Of a DNA stretch of 64,000 bases, positions 16,200-38,022 are shown in pieces. Positions within the stretch are counted from its first letter, which is position 1; each line of letters begins with the position of its first letter. A program made the translations under genes and the position numbers. The DNA comes from Candidatus Omnitrophota bacterium (GTDB taxonomy: Bacteria > Omnitrophota > Gorgyraeia > Zapsychrales > Fredricksoniimonadaceae), in contig JADFXH010000004.1 of NCBI GenBank assembly GCA_015233675.1, positions 8,492 through 72,491 on the forward strand, written 5' to 3'. The notes below the pieces were generated by a model. The model was not told where the DNA came from. It did no database searches and saw only the letters and a program-made list of their open reading frames with translations.

Positions 16200-16457
16200 A
16201 GCACCCCTCCCAGTCTTCTTTAAAGTAGTATTCTAATCTCAAGAGCAACCATCGTCAACACCGGACTTTACTAACACTTTGAACTTAGTTGATAACGCCT
16301 GTTCGGCATCAATTTATTTTTCTATGTTCACGACATTGTATTCCCTTCGCAGGCAATGCGTCATTTTTTAGCGTTAAAAAAATGACCCCAGGAGCAAAAA
16401 GAATAAATTTAGCCCTTATAATGCCTGCGCACACTGGAAATGTTCATCAGGAAGAAC

Positions 16458-19429: not shown

Positions 19430-19433
19430 GATC

Positions 19434-20969: not shown

Positions 20970-21089
20970 AATATCCCCTATAAATGTAATAGCCTGAAAA
21001 TATTATAATATGATAAAAATTACGTTAATTTTACAAGAGTATAGCACATTCTGTATAAAAGAAAATATTTAATGTCGCCCGGACTTACG

Positions 21090-21773
21090 TTATTTGTGCT
21101 TTTCTAGCCTGTCGAGCATGCGAAGTAGTCCGTCAAGGATAGTCAAAGGGTGCGGCGGACAGCCTGGGATAAAAAGATCAACAGGGATAATGGTGTCAAG
21201 CCCCCTGGAGGCTTGCGGGCTATCACAAAATATCCCTCCTGAGATTGCACAACCCCCTATCGCAATGACCAGCTTAGGATCAGGAGTAGCCTCATAGGTT
21301 TTAAGCAGCGCCTCGTGCATGTTCTTTGTAATAGGGCCGGTCACAACAATACCGTCAGCATGCCTGGGAGACGCCACAAACTGGATACCAAATCGGGAAA
21401 GATCAAAAACCGGAGTATTTAAAACATTTAGATCTAATTCGCAGGCGTTGCATCCTCCGGCTGAGACCTGCCTTAGCTTAAGCGAACGGCCAAAAATTTT
21501 CAACATACGGTCATTCAAAGCGCGGGCTAATACCATATCTCGCTTATGAAATAAAATCAAATCTTCACGTTTAGACACAGCCATTCGGTAATCATTCGAA
21601 TACACAACATCGCTATCAGGATTAAAAGATATTTCCCCAAGATCAACACTGCCGCTTGGATCCGCAACCACAGGACGCCCGCGATAACGCAAAGGCAAAG
21701 CCGGTGCGGGGGTCTTGGGAAAAAGCAAGGTCCTGCAGCCTTGTTTAAAACGAGTTTTAAGAATTTTTAACAT
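21090..21773 (-). CDS. NuoB/HycG-like small subunit of a group-4-hydrogenase-related (Ehr-like) complex
   Basis: Four Cys for the proximal [4Fe-4S] cluster are retained (GGCNACELD, GGCAISGG, PGCPPHP). The ATG at 21773 is preceded by GAGGGG, so I prefer it over 21797. Confidence 0.85.
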   Translation of the reverse strand: MLKILKTRFKQGCRTLLFPKTPAPALPLRYRGRPVVADPSGSVDLGEISFNPDSDVVYSNDYRMAVSKREDLILFHKRDMVLARALNDRMLKIFGRSLKLRQVSAGGCNACELDLNVLNTPVFDLSRFGIQFVASPRHADGIVVTGPITKNMHEALLKTYEATPDPKLVIAIGGCAISGGIFCDSPQASRGLDTIIPVDLFIPGCPPHPLTILDGLLRMLDRLEKHK

Positions 21774-21829
21774 AATGTTATCCCCTCTCTGATACAAAAT
21801 AAATATTGCGGCGGGCGCTAAGAATCTAT

Positions 21830-23341
21830 CTATAGATCATGCCCGCTATAAGACAAATTGAAACTCTTGTTACACAAGGGAAAATCAGAAATCTCCTGGC
21901 CCCGCATGGACAAAGCTAGCCCAAACCAGTTATGGAATGATGGGTCTTTGATCTTATAACGGGCAAATCCGCCCTGAGCGTCGCTTATACCCACATGCAT
22001 GATTTCCCCTCGCCATCCTTCGACCAAGGCCACGGCAAGTGTATCCGGTTTCATGGGACCAGGGGCTGCGAAAATATCTCCTGCCGGCAATGAAGGTAAA
22101 ACTCTAAGCAAGAATTCCAAAGACCTTAAGACCTCCTGGTTTCTAACCAAGGCTCTGGCATACACATCTCCGGTTGCCCCTAGAGAAATAGGCACATGTT
22201 GAAACTGCCACATCCCTGAAGCATAATTTATCCTGACATCACATTCCAGCTGACTGGCACGTCCAACCGGCCCCACGAGCCCTATCTCTTTGGCGTCTTT
22301 TAAGGCAATCACCCCTACCCCTTCAAAACGCGCTAACACCGACGGTCTGGCAAACAAAAGATCGCTTACGTCTTTAAATTCTTCCCTGTACTTTTTAAGC
22401 TTAAAACAAAAATCATCTGCCATTTTGGCATCGATATCAAACAGGACTCCCCCTGGCCTGCAGAGTCCTTTGCCAAAACGATTCCCTGTCAAAGCTAAAA
22501 GCAAATTCAAATAATCCCCTCGCATACGTCCAAAATAACCGCTCGTGGGTAAAAATCCCGCATCCATGCCTAGCGCTCCTAAATCCCCCACATGATTGGC
22601 TAATCTCTCCAGCTCTAAGGCAACAGCCCGAATCGCCTGGGCACGGGCAGAGATGCTGCATCCTGTTAAAGATTCCACCACTTCACAAAAAGCCGTAGAA
22701 TGGCCGATAGATGTATCTCCGGCAATTGATTCACTTAAAAGCATATTTCGCCTCAGGTCCCTGCCTGCCATGAGCCCTTCAATGCCCCGATGCTGATACC
22801 CTAACTGGATCTCCAAATGCATGACTGCTTCCCCATGGCATTGAAAACGAAAATGACCGGGTTCAATAATTCCAGCATGAACCGGCCCTACGCCAACTTC
22901 ATGGACTTCTTCACCATCAACCGCGTAAAAAGGATATTCCCCCGGGATCGTCTTATTTGCAATATTTTTCCAAATGTCAGACGCTGCCCTATAATTGGAA
23001 TGATACCTTAAAGGCTTAAGCCATGGGTGCCCCAGAGGCCGTATAGCCCACTGCTCTGCAATTTCCCGCTCAAATAAGTGCGCTTGTGGCAAATCTTTTG
23101 TTAAAGATTCGTACTGCGGGGATTCCGGAGAAATAATTGTCGATAAAATTTCAAGTTCGGCATCCTCATCCATACCCATAATGGCCAAAATCCTTATTTT
23201 TCCGTTTGCTTCTAAATTCCCGAATAAATTCACCAAACGGGCTGCTGCATGACAAGATTCAAGAATACGGTTCCGGAACTCTTGCACAGCTAAAACTTTT
23301 ATATTTGATAAAGCTATTTGCCCACCATTAAACAGTTCCAT
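21830..23341 (-). CDS. NuoC-NuoD/HycE-like large subunit lacking the [NiFe] cysteine ligands (Ehr-like)
   Basis: NuoC-like N-terminus (LFEREIAEQWAIRPLGHPWLKPLR). Conserved GPVHAGIIEPGHFRF and LGYQHRGIE. L1 position reads SESIAGDTSIGHSTAF and the C-terminus reads SFNLSYSGHDL (no CxxC). The ATG at 23341 has GGGAGGA 10 nt upstream. Confidence 0.85.
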   Translation of the reverse strand: MELFNGGQIALSNIKVLAVQEFRNRILESCHAAARLVNLFGNLEANGKIRILAIMGMDEDAELEILSTIISPESPQYESLTKDLPQAHLFEREIAEQWAIRPLGHPWLKPLRYHSNYRAASDIWKNIANKTIPGEYPFYAVDGEEVHEVGVGPVHAGIIEPGHFRFQCHGEAVMHLEIQLGYQHRGIEGLMAGRDLRRNMLLSESIAGDTSIGHSTAFCEVVESLTGCSISARAQAIRAVALELERLANHVGDLGALGMDAGFLPTSGYFGRMRGDYLNLLLALTGNRFGKGLCRPGGVLFDIDAKMADDFCFKLKKYREEFKDVSDLLFARPSVLARFEGVGVIALKDAKEIGLVGPVGRASQLECDVRINYASGMWQFQHVPISLGATGDVYARALVRNQEVLRSLEFLLRVLPSLPAGDIFAAPGPMKPDTLAVALVEGWRGEIMHVGISDAQGGFARYKIKDPSFHNWFGLALSMRGQEISDFPLCNKSFNLSYSGHDL

Positions 23342-23348
23342 AAATTTT

Positions 23349-24851
23349 TTATCCTCCCAAGAGTCCCGCGGCCTTATGTAAGTCATTATCAAGGAACGGC
23401 GGGATATAAAAACCAAGAATAAGAACTATGACGATTAAAATCAAGATTGGCATGATCATACTTAAACTTTCCCTTGTCTTCATTCTAAGCCCTAAGGGCG
23501 AAGGATCTTTATTCACATTAAGATCCTTCGCGCAGTTTACCCCCGAATGTTTTAATCGGGGGCTCATGATGACAGAAGAGACAGATTGTCCCTGAATCAT
23601 TTTTAAAATTATGTCTGCAATCCCTATAAAAATAAGGGCCAAAAACAAACAGTAAAAAAACGCGACTAAGTAATGATGTCCTATCAAGGCTGCGTACAGA
23701 ATCAATAATTCACTGATAAAAGTTCCGAAGGGAGGCATTGCGCTTACAGCCAAAAAAGCGGCTAAAAGAAAAATACCTGTAATCGGGAACTCACGAAGCA
23801 CCCCCCTGACATCATTGACTTTTTTGCTTTTATATTGCTTGTATAAATTGCCCGTCACCAAGAAAGCAAAACCCTTGGTAAAAGCGTTATTAATCACATG
23901 AAGGAGGCTGCCATAAATACCTATTGGCCCAAGGCCAATACCAATAGCTAAAATTCCCATATGCTCCACACTGGAGTAGGCAAACATCCTCTTATAATCT
24001 TCCTGACCCAAGATAAACACATAAGCCACGCCCAGAGAGATAATCCCTAAGAGTATGAGCATGGATGAAAAAAATGGAGTTTGGCCCGCGGCAAAACACA
24101 CCTGTCCGACTCTTAAAATACTTAAAAAAGCACAGTTTAATAAACATCCGGAAAGCAGCGCGGAAATTGGCGACGGCGCTTGTGAATGGGCGTCAGGCAG
24201 CCAAGTATGCATGGGAGCAAGCCCCATCTTAGTCCCGCATCCAATAAGCAAGAAAATTACGCTTATTTTAAGCCAAGGCACAGAAAGCTCCTTGGCATGG
24301 TTTAAAAGTTTATCAATAAAAAGGCTTTGAACATTATCGAAGCCCGCAACAGCAAGAAAATATGTCCCCAAAAGAGCCAAAGCTATCCCAATTAAACAAA
24401 TCATTAAAAATTTCCAGGTAGCTTCAATGCTTTGCCTGGTTTTTACAAAATTGATCAACGGCACACTGGATAAAGTCGTGGCTTCGATGCCGATTAATAA
24501 AAGCCCAAAATGCCGGCTGATAGTGACCAAAGTCATAAAAGAAAGGAAAAACAATAAGAATCCGATAAAAATACGATGGGAAACATCTGACTCATTTTTA
24601 AAATAACCCATCAAATAAAATGAGACCATTAAAAAAAGCACACTAACAACTGAAAGGACAAGAAGCCCTAAAGCATCCAGGCCTAAAAATCCATTTAAAA
24701 CAAAAGCCGGTTGAAACTTCCAGAAGCTAAACACGCAAGCCGTATGCAAAAATGCTGTAAAAAAGAGCATCCTGTTGCGGGATTTTTGTTCTGCAAGGAT
24801 GAAAACTGATCCCCCAACAATCAAAGGGAATAAAACCAAAAAAATCAACAT
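23349..24851 (-). CDS. Antiporter-like subunit (NuoN/HyfF-like), set 1
   Basis: 500 aa polytopic, Mrp/NuoLMN-family blocks (…[26 protein letters not shown]…, …YSSVEHMG…). Confidence 0.85.
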   Translation of the reverse strand: [500 protein letters not shown]

Positions 24852-24854
24852 AGA

Positions 24855-25499
24855 TCAATCCTTCAACGTGGTCAGCTGGGTCGTGTCCGTATTATTAAAT
24901 TCTACACTGATATGATTCACCACGATCCCCATGACCAGGGCGGCGATAAAAAGGTCCAAAAGAATGCCCATCTCAACTAACAGAGGCATTTTCTTCAACA
25001 ATAAAATAGCAAAAAGGAAAATACCATTTTCCAAAACTAAATATCCAATAACTTGGCTAATGGCTTTGTTACGGCCGACTAAAAGCAAGAATCCCATAAT
25101 AATTAAAGAAAATGAAGATGGGATCACCATGTCTGATCCTATCTTTACCGGAAAAATAAGTTTAGAAGCAAGCAAAAAGGCTCCTGCAATAGCAAAACCG
25201 CTTAATAATAAAGTCGTCCCTGTCCCTATTAGAGGGCTCACTTCACTGCGGACAGATACGTGCCTGATCGCCCAAAAAAGAAAATAAGGCATAATAAGGC
25301 CTCGAAGCACCATCGCAGCTAAACAGACAAAAATGATATAAAGCTCCATTTCTTTAGCATACAAAAAAAACGGCACACAGCCTAAAAACAAAGACTGCAG
25401 GCCGAAGATATGTATCATCGTTCCCAGACGGGTACTTGCCACAATAAAAAGGCCGAGAATTACAATTAAAATTAAGATAGCATCTAACCAAACATTCAT
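24855..25499 (-). CDS. HyfE/NuoK-like small membrane subunit, set 1
   Basis: 214 aa, about 7 hydrophobic helices, YLVLENGIFLFA block typical of HyfE-type subunits. TAATG overlap with the upstream gene. Confidence 0.8.
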   Translation of the reverse strand: MNVWLDAILILIVILGLFIVASTRLGTMIHIFGLQSLFLGCVPFFLYAKEMELYIIFVCLAAMVLRGLIMPYFLFWAIRHVSVRSEVSPLIGTGTTLLLSGFAIAGAFLLASKLIFPVKIGSDMVIPSSFSLIIMGFLLLVGRNKAISQVIGYLVLENGIFLFAILLLKKMPLLVEMGILLDLFIAALVMGIVVNHISVEFNNTDTTQLTTLKD

Positions 25500-26419
25500 T
25501 AATGCCCCCGAACTAAAATAACGATAAATCCAAAAACGGAAAATATAAACGCGGAAAATAATAAAAAAGAGACCTTGTTCAAACGTAAACGGGCCATTGT
25601 TGATTCAACGATACCGATCAAAACGGCAAAAGCAATGATTTCAAGAATAAAAAAGGCTGTGTCTATTAAAGAATCCCCAGTCCTAAACGTAATAATAATG
25701 GAAACAAGCATCGTGCCAAAAATAAAAAGTTTTACAGCCTTGCCATAAAGAATGTAGGCCAAATCGACCCCGCTATGGTCCAAGACCATGACTTCATGGA
25801 TCATGGTAAGTTCTAAATGGGTCTCAGGATCGTCAACGGGAATACGGGAATTCTCAACCAGAAGGATCAAAAAAAAGCTGACAACCACTAAAATTAAAAC
25901 CGGCCCAACCAAAAGCCAGGAAGAGGACAATCCACCCAGAAATATTTCAGATAAAGAAAGGTTTCTGGATAATAACGCCAAAATTGTCAAATTGAGGAAC
26001 ATGGTGATCTCTGACAAACACCCAAAAGTTGCTTCTCTGCTGGCCCCCATCCCTTCAAAACTTGATCCTGTATCTAAAGCGGCCAGAATAATAACGAAGC
26101 GGGCCAAAGCGAACAAATAAACAAAAAGAATCATGTCTCCCCAGAATTGGACCGGCGGCTTCATAGCCGCAATAGGCATCAGGATACCAGCGGATAAAAT
26201 GGCAGCTAAAGAAACCATGGGCGCCGCCCTAAATATCCAATTAGTAGTAACACTATAAACAGATGCCTTACGCATTAATTTATAAAGATCATAATACGGC
26301 TGGAGTAAAGGCGGGCCAATGCGGCCGGCAAAAAAAGCCTTAGTTTTTCCTATAAATCCCAAAAGCAAAGGAGGAAAAAAAATAAGAATAGTTAAATGTA
26401 ATAATAAAAGAATAGTCAT
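25499..26419 (-). CDS. NuoH/HycD-like membrane subunit, set 1
   Basis: 306 aa. Blocks KAFFAGRIGPPLLQPYYDL, AALDTGSSFEGMGASREA, HLELTMIHEVMVLDHSG as in HycD/HyfC. Confidence 0.85.
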   Translation of the reverse strand: MTILLLLHLTILIFFPPLLLGFIGKTKAFFAGRIGPPLLQPYYDLYKLMRKASVYSVTTNWIFRAAPMVSLAAILSAGILMPIAAMKPPVQFWGDMILFVYLFALARFVIILAALDTGSSFEGMGASREATFGCLSEITMFLNLTILALLSRNLSLSEIFLGGLSSSWLLVGPVLILVVVSFFLILLVENSRIPVDDPETHLELTMIHEVMVLDHSGVDLAYILYGKAVKLFIFGTMLVSIIITFRTGDSLIDTAFFILEIIAFAVLIGIVESTMARLRLNKVSFLLFSAFIFSVFGFIVILVRGH

Positions 26420-26501
26420 ATTTATATCACTTGCATTCTATTCGGCCTTTGTTTCTCTTCTCAGGCCAAATCTGCTTGGGCCTATGAGTGAAAGGATAAC
26501 C

Positions 26502-26647
26502 GTTGTTATTAGCGACACGGAAATTTTTTGCCGTCTGCTACGGTTTACAGCTTGGCTGCTATCGCGATAAATCATTCGCGGCATCCAAGCTGTAAATCCT
26601 TGCAGACTTTTGCCAAAAAATTTCTGAATGTGTCGCAAACAACAACG
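26502..26647. repeat. Palindromic intercistronic element, family A, copy 1 (inverted relative to copies 2 and 3)
   Basis: Arms gttgttattagcgacacggaaattttttgccgtctgctacgg … ccttgcagacttttgccaaaaaatttctgaatgtgtcgcaaacaacaac. Its reverse complement aligns along its length with 28958..29138. Confidence 0.75.
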
Positions 26648-26675
26648 TTTATCCTTCTATACATTTTGATAATGT

Positions 26676-26904
26676 GGCAGCAAGGATAAATTTGTTTTTG
26701 TGAGCGACTTGTCATTTTTAGTCAAAAGTTTTTTATTTTTTCGGGAATCCCGAGGCTTTACGCCGAGGGATGTCTGAACTTGTTTGAGCCTGAAGCTTCC
26801 TAAAGAAGCTGAAGGCGAGTTGTTCAGACACCGAAAAAACAAAGAACTTTTGACGTTAAAAGAATGACCCAGGAGCGAACAAAAATAAATTTATCCTTGC
26901 TGCC
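26676..26904. repeat. Long nested palindromic element, family B
   Basis: Left arm ggcagcaaggataaatttgtttttgtgagcg… Right arm reverse-complements to ggcagcaaggataaatttatttttgttcgctcc… Inner inverted repeat gtctgaacttgtttgagcctgaagcttc / gaagctgaaggcgagttgttcagac. Partial relatives near 16362..16416 and 51455..51497. Confidence 0.65.
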
Positions 26905-26931
26905 TTCGTCACGAATGATTTCAAACCCCCT

Positions 26932-28929
26932 TCAATGCAACTTCCACGCCAATAAAACGAAAAGAAAAAAAAGAATATACAGTATATAGATTTGCGTGTG
27001 CCCGCTTTGGATCCATTTAAATCTTCTGGAAAATCTTTTAATAATAAAAAAAATCGGCCGGAACAATAAATATTCTGAAACGTCTTTTACAGAAGAACTT
27101 AAACGGGCCTGAACAGGGAAATAGCCTTTTGGCCTGACAGTCTCAATCTTAAAATATAAAATTGTCCTGAAAATTTTTAAGATCGGTTTGGCAAATGAAG
27201 AGGAGGTGTACTGCATACGGGCTGTAACGTTTGCATATCCACACACCCAGGTTTCTGTCAATTTCATTGGATAGCCCAATATAAGAAATTTACGTAAAAG
27301 AGACAGCCCTACAAAAATTAAACCGCCAAACGATATAACCTTTGTAACCATCAAAAGAGGACCAATGATGGCTTCTATTAAAACATCAGGGATAAGCATG
27401 CCTGTGGCTGCCTGAGTCCCTTGAAACGCGTAATAAACCATGTTAGCCGGGAAAAGTCCAACCCAAAGGCAAATGACTGCCAGCAAAATCATAGGGCCAC
27501 GCATTATTAGATCTCCCTCCTGATAATGATGTTCCTCTGAAGATCTGTTATTACCTAAAAAAATAACACCAAAAGCTTTAGCAAAACAAAGCGCGGCTAA
27601 ACCACCAATAAGGCTTAATGCGACTATGGCCATACTTGAAAAAATAATACCAAAAATATCAAAATGAAAAACCCCTTCCAACAATGATCGAAAAACTAAC
27701 CACTCACTGATAAACCCATTAAAAAGCGGGAGCCCGCAAATAGACAAAGAGCCAATTAAAAAAAGATGTCCTGACCATGGAAGCCGCTTAAAGAGCCCCC
27801 CCATGTGTTCCATATCGCCCGTATGAGTTGAATGGATCACAGAACCGGCACTTAAAAACAAAAGTCCTTTAAATATCGCATGATTAAAAGTATGTAAAAG
27901 TGCCGCCGCATATCCCAGTAAAGCCACTGTGTCCTGATGATACGCATGCCCTATCATTCCTATGCCCAAGCCCAATGCAATAATGCCGATATTTTCAATG
28001 CTGTGATACGCTAACAATTTCTTGATCTCATGTTGGCCCAAAGCATATAACACCCCTCCAACTCCCGAGACAGCCGCCATTATTAAAAGCAGTACTCCGC
28101 ACCACAGGGGAAAATCTTTAACAATGGCCATGGCACGCATCAAGCCATAAATTCCGACTTTAATAACCACCCCTGAAAGTAAAGCAGAAATATAACTAGG
28201 CGCCGCTGGATGAGCATAGGGCAGCCAAATATGAAAAGGCATGAATCCGGCTTTAATGCCGAAACCTATAAACGCCAGCATAAAAAGTAAAGAAGCTAAA
28301 CCCAAAGGAAATGGGGTTGCCCTCATCTGATCAAAATTCATAGACCCGGCTTTGACTCCCATGATCAAAAACATTAAAACCAAACAGAAAACTCCCACAT
28401 GGGTTGCTATCAAATAAATATAACCTGCCTTGCGCACCTGTTCGCTTTCATTGTAAAAGGTGATAAGAAAATAAGAGACTACGGTCATTAGTTCCCACGC
28501 CGCAAGGAATAAAACCGCATTTTTAGCGACTAGAACAAGGATGATGACAATCATGAGCAAATGATAAAGGGCCAAATGCACGCCCACGTTCCTTTGGCCG
28601 GTATATTCACGTAAATAGCCATACGCATAAATGCCGGCGGAAAGCGATACAATGAAAAACAATAAAAGGAAAAACGCGCTTAAAAAATCTATGCCTATAT
28701 AAAATTCAAACAACGGAAGGTGTCCAGACAACCGAAAATCTAGGCCTGTCAACGGCAAGAAAAGCTCCTTTTGGCATAAAACACTTAAGACTGACCAAAG
28801 GCCAAATCCACAAGCCGCAACCAATGACCACAAAAACAGGTAAGCAGAGGTTTTCCTGGAACGACAAAATAAGAATATCAATAAACTTGATATTGTCAGG
28901 ATAGAAAGACTGATTAATAATAGATTCAT
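26932..28929 (-). CDS. HyfB/HycC/NuoL-like antiporter-like subunit, set 1
   Basis: 665 aa. Blocks WELMTVVSYFLI, FHIWLPYAHPAAPSYISALLSG, and the HyfB-type C-terminus TWVCGY…MQYTSSSFAKP. Confidence 0.85.
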   Translation of the reverse strand: MNLLLISLSILTISSLLIFLFCRSRKTSAYLFLWSLVAACGFGLWSVLSVLCQKELFLPLTGLDFRLSGHLPLFEFYIGIDFLSAFFLLLFFIVSLSAGIYAYGYLREYTGQRNVGVHLALYHLLMIVIILVLVAKNAVLFLAAWELMTVVSYFLITFYNESEQVRKAGYIYLIATHVGVFCLVLMFLIMGVKAGSMNFDQMRATPFPLGLASLLFMLAFIGFGIKAGFMPFHIWLPYAHPAAPSYISALLSGVVIKVGIYGLMRAMAIVKDFPLWCGVLLLIMAAVSGVGGVLYALGQHEIKKLLAYHSIENIGIIALGLGIGMIGHAYHQDTVALLGYAAALLHTFNHAIFKGLLFLSAGSVIHSTHTGDMEHMGGLFKRLPWSGHLFLIGSLSICGLPLFNGFISEWLVFRSLLEGVFHFDIFGIIFSSMAIVALSLIGGLAALCFAKAFGVIFLGNNRSSEEHHYQEGDLIMRGPMILLAVICLWVGLFPANMVYYAFQGTQAATGMLIPDVLIEAIIGPLLMVTKVISFGGLIFVGLSLLRKFLILGYPMKLTETWVCGYANVTARMQYTSSSFAKPILKIFRTILYFKIETVRPKGYFPVQARLSSSVKDVSEYLLFRPIFFIIKRFSRRFKWIQSGHTQIYILYILFFLFVLLAWKLH

Positions 28930-28957
28930 TGTTGAGTCTCTTTCAAGCGGCCTATCT

Positions 28958-29138
28958 CTAGCACGGATGAATAACTATTTTGTATTTGGCACGTTCAGGA
29001 ATTTTTTGCCAAAAGTCTGCAAGGTTTTACAGCGCGGATGCCGCGGATGCTTTATCGCGATAGCATCCAAGCTGCAAACCGTAGCAGACGGCAAAAATAT
29101 TCCGTGCCAAATACAAAATAGTTATTCATCCGTGCTAG
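28958..29138. repeat. Palindromic intercistronic element, family A, copy 2 (archetype)
   Basis: Perfect 36-nt terminal inverted repeats ctagcacggatgaataactattttgtatttggcacg (28958..28993) and cgtgccaaatacaaaatagttattcatccgtgctag (29103..29138). The interior is further self-complementary. Lies between the stop at 29151 and the start at 28929. Confidence 0.85.
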
Positions 29139-29150
29139 CATCATGCATAG

Positions 29151-30563
29151 CTAGACAGACACTATCAAGGCAGCCGCATTGTGGAGCAATTTCTCCAAAG
29201 GAGACGGCATCCATAATCCGATACTGATCAATAGTATACCAGCCATTGCAATGGCTACGTTCATGTATATATTCTCTTTCTTGGCAAGGAGAGGCTCTTT
29301 AGGCTGGCCATGAATTACATTAAGAATAATTTTTCCAATACCAATAAACATTAAGCCCAGACAAACAACACCAACCGCGGCCATTAAATAATGCTTGGAA
29401 ATGATGGCCGCGTTAAGGATCAAAAGCTCGCTATGAAAAGTCGCAAAAGGAAACATGCCTGTCCCCGCTAATAGGGCCGCAATTAAAAAAACACCTGTCA
29501 GCGGATATATATGAATGACTCCCCTAATTTCATCAGCGCTCGCGGAGCCGTATTTCTGAGCTAAAGAACCCGCTGTTAAAAACATAACAACCTTGGCCAA
29601 TGCATTATTGATCATATGAAACAAAGCTCCGAACAAACCGACTGTCCCCAATCCAAGCCCCAATACCAAAAGTCCCATATGTTCAATAGAAGAATAGGCA
29701 AATGCTCTTTTAATGTTCCTCTCTCCTAAAATAAACATAGCAGGGACAATCAGTGATAAAACGCCGGATAGGATCAGGATGGAAGAAAAAAAATCAGTTA
29801 GCCCTGTTTTATTACAAATTTGAGCGATTCGAAGCAAAGCTAAAAAAGAACATTGGGTCAATGCCCCTGCCATCAACACCGCCACCATTCCTGGGGCCTG
29901 TCCGTACGCTTCCGGTTTCCAACTATGTGTTGGGGCCAAGCCCATTTTACAACCGTAACCCACAATAAAAAAGATTATACTAAGCTTCAACCAATTTACC
30001 GATAGTAAAGGCGCTCCTTTTAAAAGGGCCGGCAATAAAAGAGTATGCACATCATGGGCCGCAATGGCCAAAAAGAATGTGCCCATCAAAGCTAAAGCTA
30101 TGCCTACGGAACAAATCAACAAATACCGCCAAGTAGCCTGTAAACTTTGCTGACTACGATGGAAACTTATAAGAGGCGCGCTAAAAAGCGTGGTCGCTTC
30201 TATGGCTACCCACAAAAGACCAAAATGATAACTCACCGCAACAAGTGTCATCATTGAGAGCAAAAGGAATAAGCAAGTTACAAAGACACGGTTGCGTCCA
30301 AGCTCATGTTTAAAATAACCTATCATAAAAATAGACACTGACAAAAAAAGAAAACTGATAATCGAAAGCAATATAAGCCCCAAAGAATCAAGCACTAAAA
30401 AACCATGGTATTCCGAAGGGGGGAACTCTTTCCAAAATGAAGCAACAAACAGGCTGTGGGCTAAAGAAACGGCCCCAAAAAGCTTGAGCCTAAAGTATTT
30501 ACTTACCGGTAAAAGAACTCCCAGCGCACATAAAAACGGCATTAAAATCAAAATCGTCAACAT
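29151..30563 (-). CDS. Antiporter-like subunit (NuoN/HyfF-like), set 2
   Basis: 470 aa. Collinear with 23349..24851 (e.g. GLAPTHSWKPEAYGQAPGMVAVLMAG vs [26 protein letters not shown]). Confidence 0.85.
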   Translation of the reverse strand: MLTILILMPFLCALGVLLPVSKYFRLKLFGAVSLAHSLFVASFWKEFPPSEYHGFLVLDSLGLILLSIISFLFLSVSIFMIGYFKHELGRNRVFVTCLFLLLSMMTLVAVSYHFGLLWVAIEATTLFSAPLISFHRSQQSLQATWRYLLICSVGIALALMGTFFLAIAAHDVHTLLLPALLKGAPLLSVNWLKLSIIFFIVGYGCKMGLAPTHSWKPEAYGQAPGMVAVLMAGALTQCSFLALLRIAQICNKTGLTDFFSSILILSGVLSLIVPAMFILGERNIKRAFAYSSIEHMGLLVLGLGLGTVGLFGALFHMINNALAKVVMFLTAGSLAQKYGSASADEIRGVIHIYPLTGVFLIAALLAGTGMFPFATFHSELLILNAAIISKHYLMAAVGVVCLGLMFIGIGKIILNVIHGQPKEPLLAKKENIYMNVAIAMAGILLISIGLWMPSPLEKLLHNAAALIVSV

Positions 30564-31216
30564 TAAAACGTTTCCCCCATATTCGATTGCACAACGGACG
30601 CTGTGTTCTTCTCAAATTCTTCATTGATATGGTTGACCACGATGGCCATGATAAACACAGCAACAAAAATATCCAAAAGGATGCCCATTTCTATAAGGAC
30701 TGGCATGACATCAAACAATGATATAGCGAAAAGAAAAATGCCGTTTTCAAGGATCAAATAACCCAAAACCTGGGTCACGGCACGAGTACGTGTTACCATG
30801 ATCATAAATCCTAAAAGGACCGTTGAAAGAGAACATGGCAGGACCAAGTCAGAGGCGGGCTGACCCGGAATTTTCAAAGATAAAGAAACCCAAAATGCCC
30901 CGGCTATGACTATGGCCCCAAAAATAATGGATGCCCCAAATCCGATGATAGGCTTGATTTCTGAACGCATGGACACATGCCGGATAGCCCAAAATAAAAT
31001 ATATGGCACTAACGCGGCCTTTAAGATCATGGTGACAAGACCAATCATGATATCCCTGCTTGAAATACTAGAGGCATGCAGAAAAAACGGCAATAGCCCT
31101 AAGACAAAAGACTGAAGGGCAAAAACGCCAATCATCGCGGCTACGCGGTGATTGGACAAAATAATAAGCGATAAGAATACAATAACAATACAGATCACAT
31201 CAACCCAACTTGTCAT
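30563..31216 (-). CDS. HyfE/NuoK-like small membrane subunit, set 2
   Basis: Paralog of 24855..25499 (YLILENGIFLFA). I prefer the ATG at 31216 (MTSWVDVICIV…) because the ORF-track start at 31273 overlaps the upstream gene. Confidence 0.8.
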   Translation of the reverse strand: MTSWVDVICIVIVFLSLIILSNHRVAAMIGVFALQSFVLGLLPFFLHASSISSRDIMIGLVTMILKAALVPYILFWAIRHVSMRSEIKPIIGFGASIIFGAIVIAGAFWVSLSLKIPGQPASDLVLPCSLSTVLLGFMIMVTRTRAVTQVLGYLILENGIFLFAISLFDVMPVLIEMGILLDIFVAVFIMAIVVNHINEEFEKNTASVVQSNMGETF

Positions 31217-31220
31217 ACCT

Positions 31221-32144
31221 CTACATCCTCCACATCTTGACGACAAATCCAAAAAAAGCCAAAGCAAAAGCAATCAACAATAAATTATTAACCCTGTTAA
31301 GCCTGAGGCGCGCCATAGTCGATTCTATAATGCCCACCGTGACGGACAAAACCAGCATCCCGCCTAAAAAAATCAGCATATCCCAAGCCGTATTCCCCGA
31401 TTGGACTGGAACAATAATAGGGACCATGATGCTGGCAAAAACAAAAAATTTTATAGCCGCTGCGTAAAGCATATAGCCCAAATCTACCCCGCTGTGGTCT
31501 AAAATCATCACTTCATGGATCATGGTCAATTCCAAATGAGTATCAGGATCATCAATGGGAATGCGGGCGTTTTCTGTCAGAATAACAATAAAAAAACTGC
31601 CTACCACCAAAAGCAAAACTGGCCCCATCAGTGTCCAAGACAAAGGGAAATTAGCCCCTATCATCGCAGATAAAGAAATGCTGTGGCTAACAAACGAAAG
31701 CGTAATGAAATTCATAAATAGCGCCAGTTCAGAAAGGCAGGAAAAAAAAGCCTCACGGCTGGCTCCCATTCCTTCAAAACTAGATCCGGTATCAAGAGCC
31801 GCAGAGATCATAAAAAACCGGGCAAACCCCAAGATATAGGCTGCCAGGAGTATATCACCGGAAAATTTTACAGGAGCTTTAAATGTCCCAAGGGGAACAA
31901 GCGCCGATAAAACCAAAACAGCGGCAAGATTAATGATAGGTGCGGCACAAAAAATCCATGTGGTTGTCCTGCTATAGACAGAATTCTTTTGAAACAGCCG
32001 CTGCAAGTCAAAATACGGCTGAAAAAAAGACGGCCCTTTCTTGCCTGCAAAAAATGCCTTTACTTTTGAAATAATGCCTAAAAATAAAGGTGACAGGGTT
32101 AGGACAATTAGCCAGTGGGATAAAATTAAGAATATAATGTTCAT
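31221..32144 (-). CDS. NuoH/HycD-like membrane subunit, set 2
   Basis: Paralog of 25499..26419 (AALDTGSSFEGMGASREA and HLELTMIHEVMILDHSG are both conserved). The ATG at 32144 forms an ATGA overlap with the upstream stop. The ORF-track start at 32156 is a TTG. Confidence 0.85.
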   Translation of the reverse strand: MNIIFLILSHWLIVLTLSPLFLGIISKVKAFFAGKKGPSFFQPYFDLQRLFQKNSVYSRTTTWIFCAAPIINLAAVLVLSALVPLGTFKAPVKFSGDILLAAYILGFARFFMISAALDTGSSFEGMGASREAFFSCLSELALFMNFITLSFVSHSISLSAMIGANFPLSWTLMGPVLLLVVGSFFIVILTENARIPIDDPDTHLELTMIHEVMILDHSGVDLGYMLYAAAIKFFVFASIMVPIIVPVQSGNTAWDMLIFLGGMLVLSVTVGIIESTMARLRLNRVNNLLLIAFALAFFGFVVKMWRM

Positions 32145-33961
32145 TTCAATTTCCAAACCAGCAAAAATATCAAATACAAGAAAATGTACATCAAGTATAT
32201 TTGGGTATAACGAATACGGTTCATGTCCAGCTTCTTTGAAAAACTTGTCAATCGAGCAAACAAAGGCTTAAATAAGAATTCTTCGGATGCATCATGGACC
32301 GATGACGACATGGATGTTTTAGCTGGAAATTTCCCTTTAACATCCCCCCCTTCACGTCGAAAAAATAGAATTCCTTTTACAAAATCAACAATAAGAAGGG
32401 CAAAGGAAGATGAGGTGTATTGAATCTTAGGCGTCATCTGAAAAAAACCGCAGCCCCAGGTTTCACGAACAGGCTGGGCGTGGCCTTGCAAAAGTTTGCG
32501 ACGTATACCTACAAGGGCCAAAACCAAGGCAAAAAAAAGAAAAACACCGCTAATGACAAGAGATAAGGGGTAAAAAATAGTTCCCATAGGAAGACTTGCA
32601 AGGTCCGTATGTGATAAATAGGCTCCGCCTTGAAAAGCTGCATTGGCCATTATTTGAGGAAAAAGGCCGATCCACAAGCATAACCCTCCCAGGACCAGCA
32701 TGGGAATAATCATTAATAAAGAAATTTTGCCCGTGGATGGCGGTTCTTGCAGATGGCGAGGTTCGCCTAAAAACACGGTGCCATATACCTTGGTAAAACA
32801 AGCCAAGGCTAACGCTCCCATGAGAGCCAATGAAATAATTCCCACAGCACAAGTAAAAGCCCCCTGCAAAGGCAAATGAAAAAGCCCTTGAAAAAGGCCA
32901 AAATAAATAATGAACTCACTGATAAATCCATTAAATAACGGCAGTCCACAAATAGCCAAAGCCCCAACAAGAAATAAAATGCTGACCAACGGCATAGTAC
33001 GGGCGAGTCCTCCCATCAGGTCCATATCACTTGTATGCGTTCTTTGAATAACACATCCCGCACCCATAAACAAAAGCCCTTTAAATATAGCATGGTTTAA
33101 AACGTGCAAAAGTGCGCCGCCAAATCCAAGTACGGATAAAAATGGCATGTGATGGCTCTGCCCCAATAGCCCAACGCCTAAACCCAGCGAAATAATCCCG
33201 ATATTCTCAATGCTATGATAAGCCAACAGCTTTTTAAGTTCATGCTGACCTAAAGCGTACAAAACTCCCATCAGCCCACACACGACACCAATGATTAAAA
33301 TCAAATATCCGCACCAATCCGGTAATACCCCGATTATCCATAACACCCGACAGATGCCGTAAATGCCCATTTTGATAGCCACCCCCGATAAAATAGCAGA
33401 AATATGTGTCGGAGCTGCGGGATGCGCGTGAGGCAGCCAAATATGGACCGGAACAAACCCTGCTTTGATCCCAAAACCAATAATGGCCAAAAGAAGTATA
33501 CTACCCGCAAAAGCAACAGGAAAACTCGAATGACTGATAATCTCAAAGTTCATGGACCCGGCATTATGCGCCATTAAAAAGAACATTAAAATAAGAAGAA
33601 AAGTCCCGCAATGGGACATGATCAAATAAAGGAAGCCAGCACGACGCACAGAGGATTTTTCATCATTAAAAACAATTAAAAAATAGGTAGAAATGGACAT
33701 CATTTCCCAAGCACCTAAGAAAAGAATCACATTATTGGCCAAGACGATCAAAACAAGAGCGGTTGACAAAAGGAAATAAAAAAAGATATGGAGCCCCATT
33801 GACTTGGTGGTCCTATACTGACGCATGTACCCTACAGCGTAAACGCCGGCACATAAAACCAGGATGGTGACTGCGGTAAGAAAGATAAGACTCAAAGAAT
33901 CAAGTTTAAGAGCAAACTCCCCAAAAGGGACATGCCATGGCCATTGAAATGATTCTAGCAT
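32141..33961 (-). CDS. HyfB/HycC/NuoL-like antiporter-like subunit, set 2
   Basis: Paralog of 26932..28929 (WEMMSISTYFLI, VHIWLPHAHPAAPTHISAILSG, TWGCGF…IQYTSSSFALL). I prefer the ATG at 33961 (MLESFQWPWH…), which avoids overlap with the ptsN-like gene. Confidence 0.85.
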   Translation of the reverse strand: MLESFQWPWHVPFGEFALKLDSLSLIFLTAVTILVLCAGVYAVGYMRQYRTTKSMGLHIFFYFLLSTALVLIVLANNVILFLGAWEMMSISTYFLIVFNDEKSSVRRAGFLYLIMSHCGTFLLILMFFLMAHNAGSMNFEIISHSSFPVAFAGSILLLAIIGFGIKAGFVPVHIWLPHAHPAAPTHISAILSGVAIKMGIYGICRVLWIIGVLPDWCGYLILIIGVVCGLMGVLYALGQHELKKLLAYHSIENIGIISLGLGVGLLGQSHHMPFLSVLGFGGALLHVLNHAIFKGLLFMGAGCVIQRTHTSDMDLMGGLARTMPLVSILFLVGALAICGLPLFNGFISEFIIYFGLFQGLFHLPLQGAFTCAVGIISLALMGALALACFTKVYGTVFLGEPRHLQEPPSTGKISLLMIIPMLVLGGLCLWIGLFPQIMANAAFQGGAYLSHTDLASLPMGTIFYPLSLVISGVFLFFALVLALVGIRRKLLQGHAQPVRETWGCGFFQMTPKIQYTSSSFALLIVDFVKGILFFRREGGDVKGKFPAKTSMSSSVHDASEEFLFKPLFARLTSFSKKLDMNRIRYTQIYLMYIFLYLIFLLVWKLK

Positions 33962-33980
33962 ATTAAAAAATCTGCCTTCT

Positions 33981-34664
33981 TTATAAAGCTCTTGCCGTTC
34001 TTGATTCCGCGACTTGAAATGCCGCCAGAATCTCTTCACTTTGCCCTCGGCGCTTTAAAGCCGATATAACTTCTTCGTCCTGCAGGCAAAATGCCAAGCG
34101 TGATAATAAAGACAAGTGCCATTTAAACGATGACGACAAAATGACAAATAAAGTATGCACCCCTTCACCATCGAGTGCAGAAAAATCAACAACCTTTTCA
34201 AGAAAGAAAATTCCAACGATAGGCTCCATTCCAGCCAGCACCACCGGATGTTTAACATGCGGAATAGCAATACCATTGCCAATACCGGTTGTTCCTGCCT
34301 GCTCACGGGACAATAGCATCTCTTTTAAAGAGGCTCTCTGAATATGACCGGGCAAGGGTAATAGATCTAGGACCTTCCCAAGAACTTCTTCCCGTAAAGA
34401 CCCATTGATCCCAAAATATACGCCTCCACGCATAAGTGCCGGGGTGATGATATCCCTGCCTTGACGGGTCTTTTCACAAAGCTTCAATGCACCCGTGGTA
34501 AGACGTATCCGGTTTTTTAAGGCCCACTCTAAAACTTCAACCGAATTAAAATAATACTGGTCATTAGCCTTAATGGCTGGCATACCCTTCTTATTAAGCC
34601 ATTGATAAAGCGTCTCCTCCTCAATTTCAAATGCCTTTTCTATATCACGAAAAGTCAGCTGCAT
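33981..34664 (-). CDS. HTH domain fused to a PTS EIIA(Ntr)/PtsN-type domain
   Basis: N-terminus LTFRDIEKAFEIEEETLYQWLNKKGMPAIK (excisionase/MerR-like HTH). EIIA-2 active-site block GIGNGIAIPHVKH. GAGAGGGA RBS. Confidence 0.8.
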   Translation of the reverse strand: MQLTFRDIEKAFEIEEETLYQWLNKKGMPAIKANDQYYFNSVEVLEWALKNRIRLTTGALKLCEKTRQGRDIITPALMRGGVYFGINGSLREEVLGKVLDLLPLPGHIQRASLKEMLLSREQAGTTGIGNGIAIPHVKHPVVLAGMEPIVGIFFLEKVVDFSALDGEGVHTLFVILSSSFKWHLSLLSRLAFCLQDEEVISALKRRGQSEEILAAFQVAESRTARAL

Positions 34665-34677
34665 GGCGTCCCTCTCA

Positions 34678-36342
34678 TTATGGCTTGCTTTCTTTCAATA
34701 ATTCCTGTGCACGCAGAATTGTTTCTTTCATGCTTGAAAAAACATTTTCTTCGCCTATTAATTCATAAAGATTTGATTTAACCATTTCATTTAACGGCTG
34801 CACATGAAGTCCTGTAATAATCAGGGCGATTTGATCCTTTTTGCATTTATTATAAAAGCTTCTCAATGCGTACATCCCTGTGGAATCAATGACAGGGACA
34901 TCCCTAAATCGCAAGATCCTCACCTTCGGTTTTTCATTGATCTGACGACCAACTTCATCAAACCGGTTGGCTGCTCCAAAAAATAAAGGGCCATTGACTT
35001 CATAAATTTCTACGTGAGCGGGCAGCACAAATCCTGACAATTGACGGTCTTCGCCTTTTTCATCTTCCTCATATTCTTTGGCGATGACCTTAATATGAGT
35101 AGCATCCGCCATGCGTTTCATGAAAACAAACGAGGCCAACACCACCCCCCATTCAATGGCCGCATTCAAATCAACAAAAATGGTCAATAAAAAAGTGGAT
35201 AAAAGAACCATTTTTCCGCCTCGAGACCATTTCAGAAGTTCACAGAAAGACCTCCACTCACTCATATGGTAGGCAACCACTACTAGTATACCCGCTAAAC
35301 AGGCTAATGGAACATATTTGATCCAAATTCCCAAGAACATCATGATCAATAGGACTGTGATGGCATGCATTATTCCTGCAATCGGTGTGCGCCCGCCATT
35401 TTTGATATTAGTTACGGTCCGGGCGATCGCACCTGTAGCCGGCATGCCGCCAAAAAGAGCTGAACCGATATTCGCTATGCCTTGGCCCACAAGTTCTGTA
35501 TTGGAGCGATGTTTCGCGCCAATCATACCATCAGAAACAATAGCTGATAAAAGAGATTCCACGGCGCCTAAAATGGCTATAGTGATCGCAGGCTGGAACA
35601 ACTCACTGATGATTGAAAAACTGATATGAGGGAATACCGGTACCGGTAAGACATGCGGCAATTCTCCAAAACGGCTCCCAATCGTTTCTACTGGCAAATG
35701 AAAATAAGCCACCAGAGACGATACTGAAATCAAAGCTATCAATGCGCCCGGAACACGCTTGGAAATTCTCGGAAACAGGATAATAATCAAGACGGTTAAG
35801 AGTCCTACAATTAACGCGTCATAGTTAACTGTCCCCATATGTTCCATAAAAATCCGCCACTTTTCCACAAATTCCGCCGGCACTTTCTCAATCTTTAGAC
35901 CTAGGAAGTCTTTAACTTGGGAAGAAAAAATGATGACAGCAATACCGCTGGTAAATCCCACTATAACAGAATGCGGTATAAACTTGACCGCGGTCCCAAC
36001 TTTGGCAACTCCCATAATTATAAGAAGGATACCTGCCATTAGGGTGGCAATAATAAGACCATCTACCCCGTGCTTTTGCACAATGCCGTAAACAATGACA
36101 ACAAAAGCCCCGGTGGGGCCGCCAATCTGCACCCGGCTGCCTCCCAGCATTGAAACGAGAAAGCCGGCGATGATAGCGGTAAAAAGACCTTTATCCGGAG
36201 ACACCCCAGACGCAATCGCAAAAGCAATTGCAAGAGGAATAGCCACAATTCCTACAATAAAACCGGAAACACAATCGGTCACGAATTGCTGCTTCGAATA
36301 ATCCTTAAGACAAGTTAACAATTTTGGCGAAAACATAAGCAT
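34678..36342 (-). CDS. SulP-family anion transporter with C-terminal STAS domain
   Basis: 554 aa. SulP blocks GGSRVQIGGPTGAF and NTELVGQGIANIGSALFGGMPATGAIARTV. STAS block ILRFRDVPVIDSTGMYAL. Confidence 0.9.
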   Translation of the reverse strand: MLMFSPKLLTCLKDYSKQQFVTDCVSGFIVGIVAIPLAIAFAIASGVSPDKGLFTAIIAGFLVSMLGGSRVQIGGPTGAFVVIVYGIVQKHGVDGLIIATLMAGILLIIMGVAKVGTAVKFIPHSVIVGFTSGIAVIIFSSQVKDFLGLKIEKVPAEFVEKWRIFMEHMGTVNYDALIVGLLTVLIIILFPRISKRVPGALIALISVSSLVAYFHLPVETIGSRFGELPHVLPVPVFPHISFSIISELFQPAITIAILGAVESLLSAIVSDGMIGAKHRSNTELVGQGIANIGSALFGGMPATGAIARTVTNIKNGGRTPIAGIMHAITVLLIMMFLGIWIKYVPLACLAGILVVVAYHMSEWRSFCELLKWSRGGKMVLLSTFLLTIFVDLNAAIEWGVVLASFVFMKRMADATHIKVIAKEYEEDEKGEDRQLSGFVLPAHVEIYEVNGPLFFGAANRFDEVGRQINEKPKVRILRFRDVPVIDSTGMYALRSFYNKCKKDQIALIITGLHVQPLNEMVKSNLYELIGEENVFSSMKETILRAQELLKESKP

Positions 36343-36576
36343 ACTTTCTGTATTGAAAAATCCCTGCCATTTTTTAATAAAGAGGACTATTCATCCATGC
36401 TATGAATAAAAATAATGGCTTTTAAAATTTTGGCAGAATTTTTAGTGAGGTAAACAGCGTAATGATACCTCCCCTCTTTTAAAAGAGGGGTGAGGGGGAA
36501 TTCCTGAGAAATGCCCAAACTATTAAAATCAAATCACCCTGCTTTGACTGTTTCTTTAAAAAAATTCTTTCCTTGG

Positions 36577-38022
36577 TTAATCTATTATTTCAACATCGGT
36601 ATCTTTTAAAATAAGTTTACGAGCGACCCCCGTTTGATATGCCGCCTGTTCCACGGCCTTGGTCACAGCTTCGACGACACGTTTATCAAAAATACTGGGA
36701 ATAATATATTCACTGCTCAATTGGTTCTCTAGAACAAGATTTGCAATCGCATCGGCGGCAGCTATTTTCATTTCTTCATTGATCACTTTAGCCCGCACAT
36801 TCAACGCTCCCCGAAAAATACCCGGAAATGCCAAAGCATTATTGATCTGGTTCGGAAAATCTGAACGGCCTGTGGCAAAAATCCGGCACACCTTAAAAGC
36901 TTCATGAGGGTCAACTTCGGGATCCGGATTGGCCATGGCAAAAACGATGCGATCCTCTTTCATCCTGTTAAGATCTTTACCTGTCAAAATATTGCCTGCC
37001 GAAACACCAATAAAAACATCTACCGTGCACAAAGCTTCCCTCAAGGTTAAAGAAGGGACATCGAGAGTGGCACATGAAAACAAATCTTTTCGGGCTTGGC
37101 CCAAATTGGTCTCGTCAACAATCAAAACAACCCCTTTTCGATTACACCCATACAGATTCCGCACTCCTGCGGACAACAAAATCCTGCAACAGGCAGCCCC
37201 AGCTGCGCCTAGCCCATTGACGACAACACGGACGCCTTCCATATCTTTCTTAACAATTTTTAAGGCGTTTTTTAAAGCGGCAAGTATAACGACAGCTGTC
37301 CCATGCTGGTCATCATGCATGACAGGAATGGACAGTATCTTTTTAAGCTTCTCTTCAATTTCAAAACAACGAGGGGCGCTGATATCTTCCAAATTTATGC
37401 CGCCAAAAGCCGGAGAAATATTCTGCACTGTTTTTACGATCTCATCGACATCCTGGGTAGCCAAACAAATGGGCCAAGCATCTATATTGGCAAATTCTTT
37501 AAAAATCATGGCCTTACCCTCCATGACAGGCAAGGCGGCTTCCGGCCCCAGGTTCCCCAGTCCTAAAACAGCGGACCCATCAGTAACAATGGCAACACTA
37601 TTACTTTTAATTGTCAGTTTATAAACTTTATCCGGGGTTTCAGCTATGGCTTGAGCCACTTTTGCAACCCCTGGGGTATATGCCATTGAGAGCTGATTAC
37701 GCGTTTGTATCGGTGTTTTATTTTGGACCTGTATTTTCCCGCCCAAATGAAGCAACAATATTTTGTCAGACACCGCAATGGTCTTGACATTCTCCAGTTT
37801 TTCCAGCCCCTTGAGAATCTTGTCAGCATCCTTTTGGTTTGACACATAAAAGGTGACATCACGGATAATCGTATAGGGAGTAACTTCCACAATATCAACG
37901 GCGCCTAAATCCGCTTTTACAGAGGCAATCAGGGTTGCTACCGACGCAAAAACACCGGGTTTATTTACAAGCTCTAAACGAAGAGTAAACCTGTTATTAG
38001 ATAAAAAATCAGCCTTGGCCAT
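36577..38022 (-). CDS. NAD(P)-dependent malic enzyme with N-terminal ACT domain
   Basis: Blocks AYTPGVA, TDGSAVLGLGNLG, GGINLEDISAP, VVNGLGAAGAAC. The ATG at 38022 is preceded by AAGGGGGA. The ORF-track start at 38040 is a TTG. Confidence 0.9.
   Translation of the reverse strand: MAKADFLSNNRFTLRLELVNKPGVFASVATLIASVKADLGAVDIVEVTPYTIIRDVTFYVSNQKDADKILKGLEKLENVKTIAVSDKILLLHLGGKIQVQNKTPIQTRNQLSMAYTPGVAKVAQAIAETPDKVYKLTIKSNSVAIVTDGSAVLGLGNLGPEAALPVMEGKAMIFKEFANIDAWPICLATQDVDEIVKTVQNISPAFGGINLEDISAPRCFEIEEKLKKILSIPVMHDDQHGTAVVILAALKNALKIVKKDMEGVRVVVNGLGAAGAACCRILLSAGVRNLYGCNRKGVVLIVDETNLGQARKDLFSCATLDVPSLTLREALCTVDVFIGVSAGNILTGKDLNRMKEDRIVFAMANPDPEVDPHEAFKVCRIFATGRSDFPNQINNALAFPGIFRGALNVRAKVINEEMKIAAADAIANLVLENQLSSEYIIPSIFDKRVVEAVTKAVEQAAYQTGVARKLILKDTDVEIID

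Follow-up and report, generated by a model that had tools for sequence, protein, structure and literature searches.

Two complete, diverged membrane-arm gene sets beside a single head gene pair in an Ehr-type operon of Candidatus Omnitrophota

Complex I is accepted to have evolved in a modular fashion, from a soluble hydrogenase-like head and an Mrp-like membrane module, and natural examples of whole arms and heads being re-paired are scarce. Among related systems, ehrA-D/L/S-type Ehr complexes were reportedly described by Coppi in 2005 and by Marreiros and colleagues in 2013, from Geobacter and many uncultured phyla. Ehr complexes are known as a class and their function is unresolved (PMC6349859). 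Here we analyse an Ehr-type operon in a stretch of 64,000 nucleotides from a Candidatus Omnitrophota bacterium (assembly GCA_015233675.1, contig JADFXH010000004.1, positions 8,492 to 72,491 of the forward strand), hereafter the window, whose coordinates are used throughout. In this operon a single pair of genes for a large (L) and a small (S) subunit is preceded by two four-gene membrane sets, sets 1 and 2, each with the order A-B-C-D. The locus family supplies an example of re-pairing, in that relatives have either arm by itself or the two together, in three gene orders, and the same arm stands behind two head lineages. We give about an even chance to the reading that one L/S head may be common to two exchangeable, complete and anciently diverged membrane arms.

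Our locus shares with Ehr complexes the same six-gene unit and order, an L without the NiFe cysteines and an S with [4Fe-4S] ligands, and the unit is also found in Geobacter and other phyla. It differs in that the four-gene membrane unit is present twice per L/S pair and in that the second unit shifts position and partner across relatives. The closest solved or named relatives of the subunits are HycC, HycD, HycE and HycG of E. coli Hyc (PDB 7Z0S) and, by NCBIfam, HyfB/E/F of Hyf, with P. furiosus MBH (6CFW) also among the closest solved structures. Unlike in Hyc and Hyf, the operon has no Ni-Fe site, no HycB/HycF-type ferredoxin subunits and no formate dehydrogenase partner; moreover, Hyf multiplies antiporter-like subunits only, never the NuoH-like one, whereas here the NuoH-like subunit is also doubled. 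The cyanobacterial NDH-1 complexes (NDH-1L, L', MS and MS') combine one core with alternative NdhD1-4 and NdhF1/3/4 paralogues into isoenzymes of different function. They offer the closest functional parallel to the proposed sharing of one head by alternative arms. In NDH-1, however, exchange is limited to the distal NdhD/NdhF pair, there is one NdhA (NuoH), and the paralogues are dispersed and under differential regulation, while at our locus a complete arm, including the NuoH-like docking subunit, is doubled within the same operon. Membrane arms are also known to grow by the addition of Mrp-type subunits, as in '2M' complex I with its second NuoM and in Mbh/Mbs with their Mrp modules. These systems add single antiporter-like subunits to one arm, and neither the NuoH-like nor the NuoK-like subunit is doubled. 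Neither a doubled complete arm including the NuoH-like subunit on one head, nor a complete arm moving between head lineages, was described in the literature searched, and a prior mention of either in the foundational Ehr papers is possible.

The identity of the complex rests on its two head subunits. When aligned to HycE (2e-43) and MbhL, L carries AGDT in place of CGIC and NLSYSG in place of DPCYSC, leaving all four Ni-Fe ligand positions without Cys, and the same loss was found in five L orthologues. L therefore lacks the large-subunit active-site cysteines by which group 4 [NiFe]-hydrogenases are recognised. S keeps its four [4Fe-4S] cysteines in alignment to MbhJ and HycG (GGCNACE, GGCAISGG and PGCPP are conserved), which points to a redox-competent head. 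Typing of open reading frames (ORFs) by Pfam and NCBIfam found neither NuoE/F/G nor HycB/F-type subunits in the operon, which holds B-, CD-, H- and L/M/N-like genes only and so is set apart from respiratory complex I, an enzyme of 11-14 subunits that has NuoA, J, K and I and the NADH module NuoE/F/G; indeed, the NCBIfam NuoH score was 41.8 against a 305-bit cutoff, and NuoD was likewise far under its cutoff. Mrp-type antiporters are also a poor match, as each set has a NuoH-like B and is without MrpB/E/F/G, and in the approximately 20 Omnitrophota loci read the sets always adjoin an L/S pair. A NuoD-like L without CxxC pairs, a NuoB/HycG-like S with four Cys, and the gene order HyfB-HycD-HyfE-HyfF-like, L, S are the features of Ehr. 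The absence of the Ni-Fe cysteines from L together with the presence of the cluster cysteines in S thus argues for an Ehr-type, hydrogenase-related complex, in agreement with an earlier reading made from the sequence only. Judged by its subunits, the locus is a ten-gene operon of the Ehr type, that is, of the group-4-hydrogenase-related, complex-I-like enzymes. The same six-gene order was found in about 150 loci from many phyla, from which the window deviates by doubling the first four genes.

All ten genes lie on the minus strand. Set 2 comes first (A2, 32141..33961; B2, 31221..32156; C2, 30563..31216; D2, 29151..30563), followed by set 1 (A1, 26932..28929; B1, 25499..26419; C1, 24855..25499; D1, 23349..24851) and then by L (21830..23341) and S (21090..21797). 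The sequence-only reading had noticed that the four genes at 29151-33961 (HyfB-, NuoH/HycD-, HyfE- and HyfF-like) repeat the order of the adjacent membrane genes, and had judged the paralogues by eye to be about half identical and clearly diverged. Both statements are borne out by ORF analysis, Pfam/NCBIfam and BLASTP, which gave 48% identity over 603 amino acids for A1 and A2 (E = 0), 55% for B1 and B2 (E = 9e-117), 49% for C1 and C2 (E = 1e-66) and 45% for D1 and D2 (E = 4e-129). The two motifs it quoted, AALDTGSSFEGMGASREA and HLELTMIHEVM, occur in B1 as well as in B2. At the DNA level, sets 1 and 2 are 64-70% identical, in patches, and the ten-gene order recurs in the independent assemblies L083, L161 and L162 (contigs of 145-466 kb). 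An assembly artefact or a recent duplication is therefore ruled out by the 45-55% protein identity, the patchy DNA identity and the recurrence of the order in independent contigs. A tblastn search of the 64 kb window with L and S detected no further copy of either, so that the earlier count of two intact membrane sets to one L/S pair stands.

To place the two sets, 175 loci, each with at most 10 kb of flanking sequence, were collected from a genome-collection scan, an L-centred metagenome scan and exact-protein look-ups. Every gene was typed by tblastn against the window proteins, and locus contexts came mainly from the exact-protein look-ups; the L-centred metagenome scan contributed four close loci among the matches listed. 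Outside Omnitrophota, a single B-C-D-L-S unit is preceded by one or two HyfB-like A genes. Within Omnitrophota, the locus has a common frame of (malic enzyme)-(SulP)-EIIA, then the membrane genes, then L-S-(Ppx-Ppk-ROK). The order set2-set1-L-S is found in the window and in L083 (= L161/L162), and set2-L-S-set1 in L004 and in L174/L175, the latter 78-87% identical to the window. Set2-L-S without set 1 occurs in L163/L164, L166, L165, L001 (= L167), L002, L168, L169 and L084, and set1-L-S without set 2 in L081, L016 and L170 (L082 is partial). A more divergent set3-L3-S3 was found in L173 (L003 is partial), and in L171 and L172 this is extended to set3-L3-S3-set1. Set 2 thus directly precedes this L/S lineage in about eight distinct related Omnitrophota loci, and the set2-L-S block sits behind the same EIIA/helix-turn-helix (HTH) gene, often with SulP ahead. 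The sequence-only reading had called set 2 an orphan without peripheral partners of its own; that label has to be dropped, as dedicated L/S genes follow set 2 in the operons of relatives. Its caution that the tandem layout might be the norm of the family proved unnecessary, most Ehr loci having a single B-C-D set and sometimes an extra HyfB-like gene.

The locus is found in three states, EIIA-set2-L-S-Ppx-Ppk-ROK (L163), EIIA-set1-L-S-Ppx-Ppk-ROK (L081, L170) and with both sets (window, L083, L161). As the flanking Ppx is 91-93% identical across L163, L081, L170, L083 and the window, these states occupy the same chromosomal place in close relatives. Set 1, in turn, is mobile: it stands before L-S (window, L083/L161), after L-S (L004, L174), in place of set 2 (L016, L081, L170), or after a foreign L3-S3 (L171/L172). 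Read from gene order and trees, set 2 is the partner of the window L/S by descent, and set 1 is best described as a roaming accessory module. As separate observations, two tandem HyfB-like A genes (A-A-B-C-D-L-S) were seen in many Planctomycetota, Verrucomicrobiota and Myxococcota Ehr loci, another route to a larger arm that resembles the growth of '2M', Mbh and Mbs (L014, L021, L024, L025, L034, L035, L038, L043, L057, L063, L066, L069, L085, L086, L106, L108, L116, L128 and others). In Geobacteraceae, L010 (16437-20878) and upstream parts of L007, L009 and L065 hold either a further A-B-C-D behind L-S or a further D-L-S ahead of the Ehr unit; the second Geobacteraceae A-B-C-D set is much more divergent (30-38% identity), and the locus as read ends there.

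Trees of the membrane module were built with bootstrap from concatenated A+B+C+D (about 1,500 columns) and 19-88 outgroup sets. Set 2 and set 1 were each recovered with 100% support and set 3 with 97%; set 1, set 3 and L003 grouped together at 97%, and all Omnitrophota sets were separated from other phyla at 100%. As all Omnitrophota sets fall in one clade, the duplication is old and took place within the phylum. The same clade of sets 1, 2 and 3, supported at 100% against 19-88 outgroup sets, rules out the acquisition of one set from another phylum. In the tree of L+S, only two Omnitrophota lineages were found, LS2 (100%) and LS3 (100%); LS2 goes with set 2 everywhere, LS3 goes with set 3, and the window L belongs to LS2. 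With only these two lineages present, set 1 has no head lineage of its own. Indeed, the heads of the set-1-only loci (L081, L016 and L170) nest in a 100%-supported LS2 crown clade, which mixes set-1-only, set-2-only (L163, L166) and two-set heads and shows no grouping by arrangement. The subunit phylogeny proposed earlier thus places the duplication as an old one within Omnitrophota, and makes set 2, rather than set 1, the L/S partner by descent.

Both sets are intact. Between the window and L161, the ratio of nonsynonymous (dN) to synonymous (dS) substitution was 0.07 for L and S, 0.08-0.17 across set 2 and 0.09-0.15 across set 1, and the dN of the sets was comparable to that of L/S; the ratios are approximate given a dS of about 1. 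Between the window and L004, dN was 0.18-0.25 for set 1, 0.21-0.26 for set 2 and 0.17-0.22 for L/S, and this likeness suggests long co-residence. In L171 compared with L172, the trailing set 1 gave a dN/dS of 0.08-0.10, the same as the adjacent set 3 and L3/S3. On these ratios both sets are under purifying selection (dN/dS 0.05-0.17). Decay of one set, set 2 included, is ruled out by the absence of frameshifts and by these low values.

The charged-residue chain of the antiporter-like subunits, singled out for checking by the sequence-only reading, is conserved in both sets on inspection: A1, A2, D1 and D2 all keep the Glu of transmembrane helix (TM) 5, the TM7 Lys, the TM11 His/Lys and the TM12 Glu, and A1 and A2 also keep the TM8 Lys. 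B1 equals B2 at 95/106 columns conserved within both sets. We regard this column-wise comparison as the better evidence, as regular expressions applied to the B loops were over-strict and passed over some variants. The loop motifs common to B1 and B2 are KxKAFFAG..GP..QPY.DL, DTGSSFEGMGASRE, P.DDP.THLELTMIHEV and ES.MARLR, and by comparison with complex I and formate hydrogenlyase structures these conserved loops would face NuoD/NuoB. The D subunits differ between the sets. The TM7-TM8 motif reads H(S/T)WKP(D/E)AYG(E/Q)A in set 2 and across the wider Ehr family, a form that we take to resemble NuoN/ND2, whereas set 1 D carries a derived version that seems to resemble NuoM/ND4; the D1 lineage has 17 set-1-derived substitutions. 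No other set-specific change at a probable ion-path site is as clear as that in this motif.

Taken as a mechanism, the reading that we favour would run as follows. The head would consist of S, with an N2-like [4Fe-4S] cluster, and of L, NuoCD-like and without a Ni-Fe site, and each arm would combine B, the NuoH-like docking subunit, with C, the HyfE-like connector, and the antiporter-like ion channels D and A. Set 2 would be the arm that co-evolved with the window L/S lineage, and set 1 a four-gene cassette from another Omnitrophota Ehr lineage that lost its own head and rides with foreign heads. Each arm is the sole LS2 partner in some close relative, so that each is presumably able to dock the LS2 head. 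Both arms may then dock the same head in the same cell, which would assemble two isoforms, A2B2C2D2-LS and A1B1C1D1-LS, that differ in function, with the same catalytic chemistry and a different ion-translocating arm. A wider proposal is that a whole complex-I-type arm (docking subunit, connector and two channels) may be a natural exchangeable cassette, with set 1 joined anew to at least two head lineages (LS2 and LS3), so that one operon would yield isoenzymes that are produced together and differ in ion coupling; this we put forward tentatively, at somewhat less than an even chance.

Several points weigh against the reading of one head with two alternative arms. The 'single-set' state refers to +/-10 kb around each locus and not to the whole genome, and the trees are neighbour-joining trees on corrected p-distances rather than maximum-likelihood trees. 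A functional difference between the isoforms is speculative. Moreover, in relatives without palindromic inserts (L161/L083) the ten genes lie 2-57 nt apart, and such tight packing makes it probable that the two arms are co-expressed rather than alternately regulated, which would equally fit a single assembly with both arms or a pool of head-less arms.

The sequence-only reading had proposed three options, namely a head shared by two alternative arms, an enlarged arm, and an Mrp-like translocator; the first fits best, and the other two came out weaker. In an enlarged assembly both arms would sit in a single complex, for example as a lateral or back-to-back heterodimer, with four antiporter-like channels, two NuoH-like subunits and L/S on one of them. 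Cryo-electron microscopy has shown dimeric particles of Mrp and MBS, the wider family often has additional antiporter-like subunits (the A-A-B-C-D-L-S loci), and in L161/L083 the ten genes not only lie close together but overlap and are apparently co-transcribed. Nevertheless, close relatives make do with either arm alone, no function is known for a second NuoH-like subunit within a linear arm, and the position of set 1 relative to L-S varies; B1 and B2 also keep every conserved NuoH-like loop motif, which a buried head-less copy would not need. We therefore consider a single enlarged complex distinctly unlikely. The arm without a head might instead act alone as a redox-independent, Mrp-like cation/proton antiporter, and the trailing set 1 after S, without its own head, in L004, L171/L172 and L174 would suit this role, as would the descent of A and D from the same family as Mrp-A/D, with intact channel residues. 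To our knowledge, however, no Mrp-type antiporter has a NuoH homologue, and the B subunits of the trailing set 1 keep the same NuoH-like loop motifs as head-bound B. In addition, set 1 is the sole arm beside L/S in L016, L081 and L170 and hence head-competent, and among the approximately 20 loci examined it is never away from an L/S pair, so that we rate an independent antiporter as very improbable.

The two-arm operon could also be a redundant transitional state, an intermediate of arm replacement in which the arms are functionally alike. Close lineages with both sets, with set 2 only and with set 1 only are what ongoing turnover would give. Against this, intact two-arm loci with low dN/dS are found in at least four diverged lineages and in three gene orders (window + L161; L174; L004; L171/L172), the equal dN of set 1, set 2 and L/S between the window and L004 implies long co-residence, and the D channel motif has fixed, set-specific differences; a passing intermediate is thus an unlikely account. 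If, as in the favoured reading of one head with two alternative arms, the head docks on either NuoH-like subunit, the locus would be a natural experiment on the needs of a docking interface, and would show how much of the coupling mechanism lies in the arm and how ion specificity or stoichiometry can be tuned with the chemistry unchanged.

The operon of the window is interrupted by palindromic elements that resemble miniature inverted-repeat transposable elements (MITEs). Its D2/A1 gap of 221 nt and its A1/B1 gap of 513 nt are both filled by MITE-like nested palindromes with perfect 36-nt terminal inverted repeats: one element at the D2/A1 junction (28958..29138), and two further nested elements in the A1/B1 gap (26500..26904). 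One element per gap is held in common, with 90% identity over 113 nt, and a third related copy lies in another intergenic gap (51300-51431). The predicted RNA fold reaches -115.9 kcal/mol (z = -12.8) for the D2/A1 element and -214 kcal/mol (z = -14.6) for the A1/B1 elements. The elements are absent from the same junctions in relatives, where D2/A1 spans 2-57 nt (L161/L083) and A1/B1 2-8 nt. Judged from their position, the palindromes may split the transcript into set 2, A1, and B1-S; a scan of 20900-36600 for sigma-70 promoters and intrinsic terminators gave counts no higher than those of shuffles.

The assignment of the individual subunits is consistent across both sets. A2 is a HyfB/HycC-like antiporter-like subunit (Pfam Proton_antipo_M 8e-55 plus Proton_antipo_N; best NCBIfam HyfB), with E. 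coli HycC as its best solved relative (7z0s_C, 5e-67); its reading frame extends 5' to a GTG at 34039, although translation probably starts at the ATG at 33961. A1 is HyfB-like by Pfam, with orthologues 65-78% identical in L004, L081, L083, L170-L172 and L174. The docking subunits are both NuoH/HycD-like members of PF00146, NADHdh (6e-30 for B2 and 4e-33 for B1). The best solved relative of B2 is HycD (7z0s_D, 4e-28), followed by MbhM (6cfw_M), and its orthologues form more than 120 clusters of 58-100% identity, all named members being Omnitrophica/Omnitrophota. B1 likewise has a deep orthologue family (57-100% identity) whose named members are mostly Omnitrophota. Identical counterparts of B1 and of B2 are present in an NCBI 'Candidatus Omnitrophica' MAG, on a 216 kb contig. 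C2 (217 amino acids from the ATG at 31216) and C1 are HyfE-like small membrane subunits that match NCBIfam NF008556, hydrogenase 4 membrane subunit, at 6e-26 (under cutoff) and 6e-25, respectively, C1 with a weak Pfam Oxidored_q2 match in addition. D2 is a HyfF-like antiporter-like subunit (Pfam Proton_antipo_M 2e-36; best NCBIfam HyfF) with MbhH (6cfw_H) as its best solved relative, and D1 is also HyfF-like (Pfam 3e-46). In the window D1 has 500 amino acids, compared with 472-491 in orthologues, the surplus apparently being a hydrophilic stretch near the C-terminus, around SPRLKHSGVNCAKDLNVNKDPSPLGLRMKTRE. The NuoC-NuoD/HycE-like L matches Complex1_49kDa and, weakly, the 30kDa family; its ORF is open to 23416, with the ATG at 23341 as the likely start. 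S is NuoB/HycG/MbhJ-like (Pfam Oxidored_q6 8e-31). NCBIfam scores of the membrane subunits and of L are all far under the equivalog cutoffs, and S exceeds the cutoff of the generic NuoB subfamily model NF005012 (129.7 against 116 bits) but of no NuoB equivalog model.

In the direction of transcription, again on the minus strand, the locus reads malic enzyme, SulP/STAS, EIIA-HTH, set 2, set 1, L, S, Ppx, Ppk and ROK kinase. The gene at 33981..34664 encodes a PTS-EIIA(Ntr)-like protein with an N-terminal HTH (NCBIfam PtsN/FruA-IIA-type matches under cutoff), and its EIIA(Ntr)-like counterpart in relatives matches PF00359 and, weakly, HTH_17. In all Omnitrophota loci whose sequence extends to this point, it lies immediately 5' of the first membrane gene, and it was also found by tblastn in many other phyla; SulP/STAS, here an anion transporter gene at 34678-36342, is often found on its own 5' side. 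The EIIA(Ntr)-HTH protein, as the conserved first gene product of the locus, is a putative regulator, and this conserved arrangement suggests that the Ehr operon may be regulated by, or functionally joined with, the EIIA-HTH and SulP genes. On the 3' side (13423-20969) follow polyphosphate/glycogen genes, for Ppx, Ppk, a ROK-family kinase and a GH57 enzyme, and Ppx-Ppk-ROK also stands 3' of the operon in most of the close relatives with enough flanking sequence (L081, L083, L163, L170-L172).

A large survey of Omnitrophota genomes scored 'respiratory complex I' by PF00346 alone, a sole marker that would also count Ehr-type L subunits (PMC10066038). The Ehr-type L does match PF00346 strongly, and some of the 'complex I' calls in Omnitrophota may be Ehr-type complexes.

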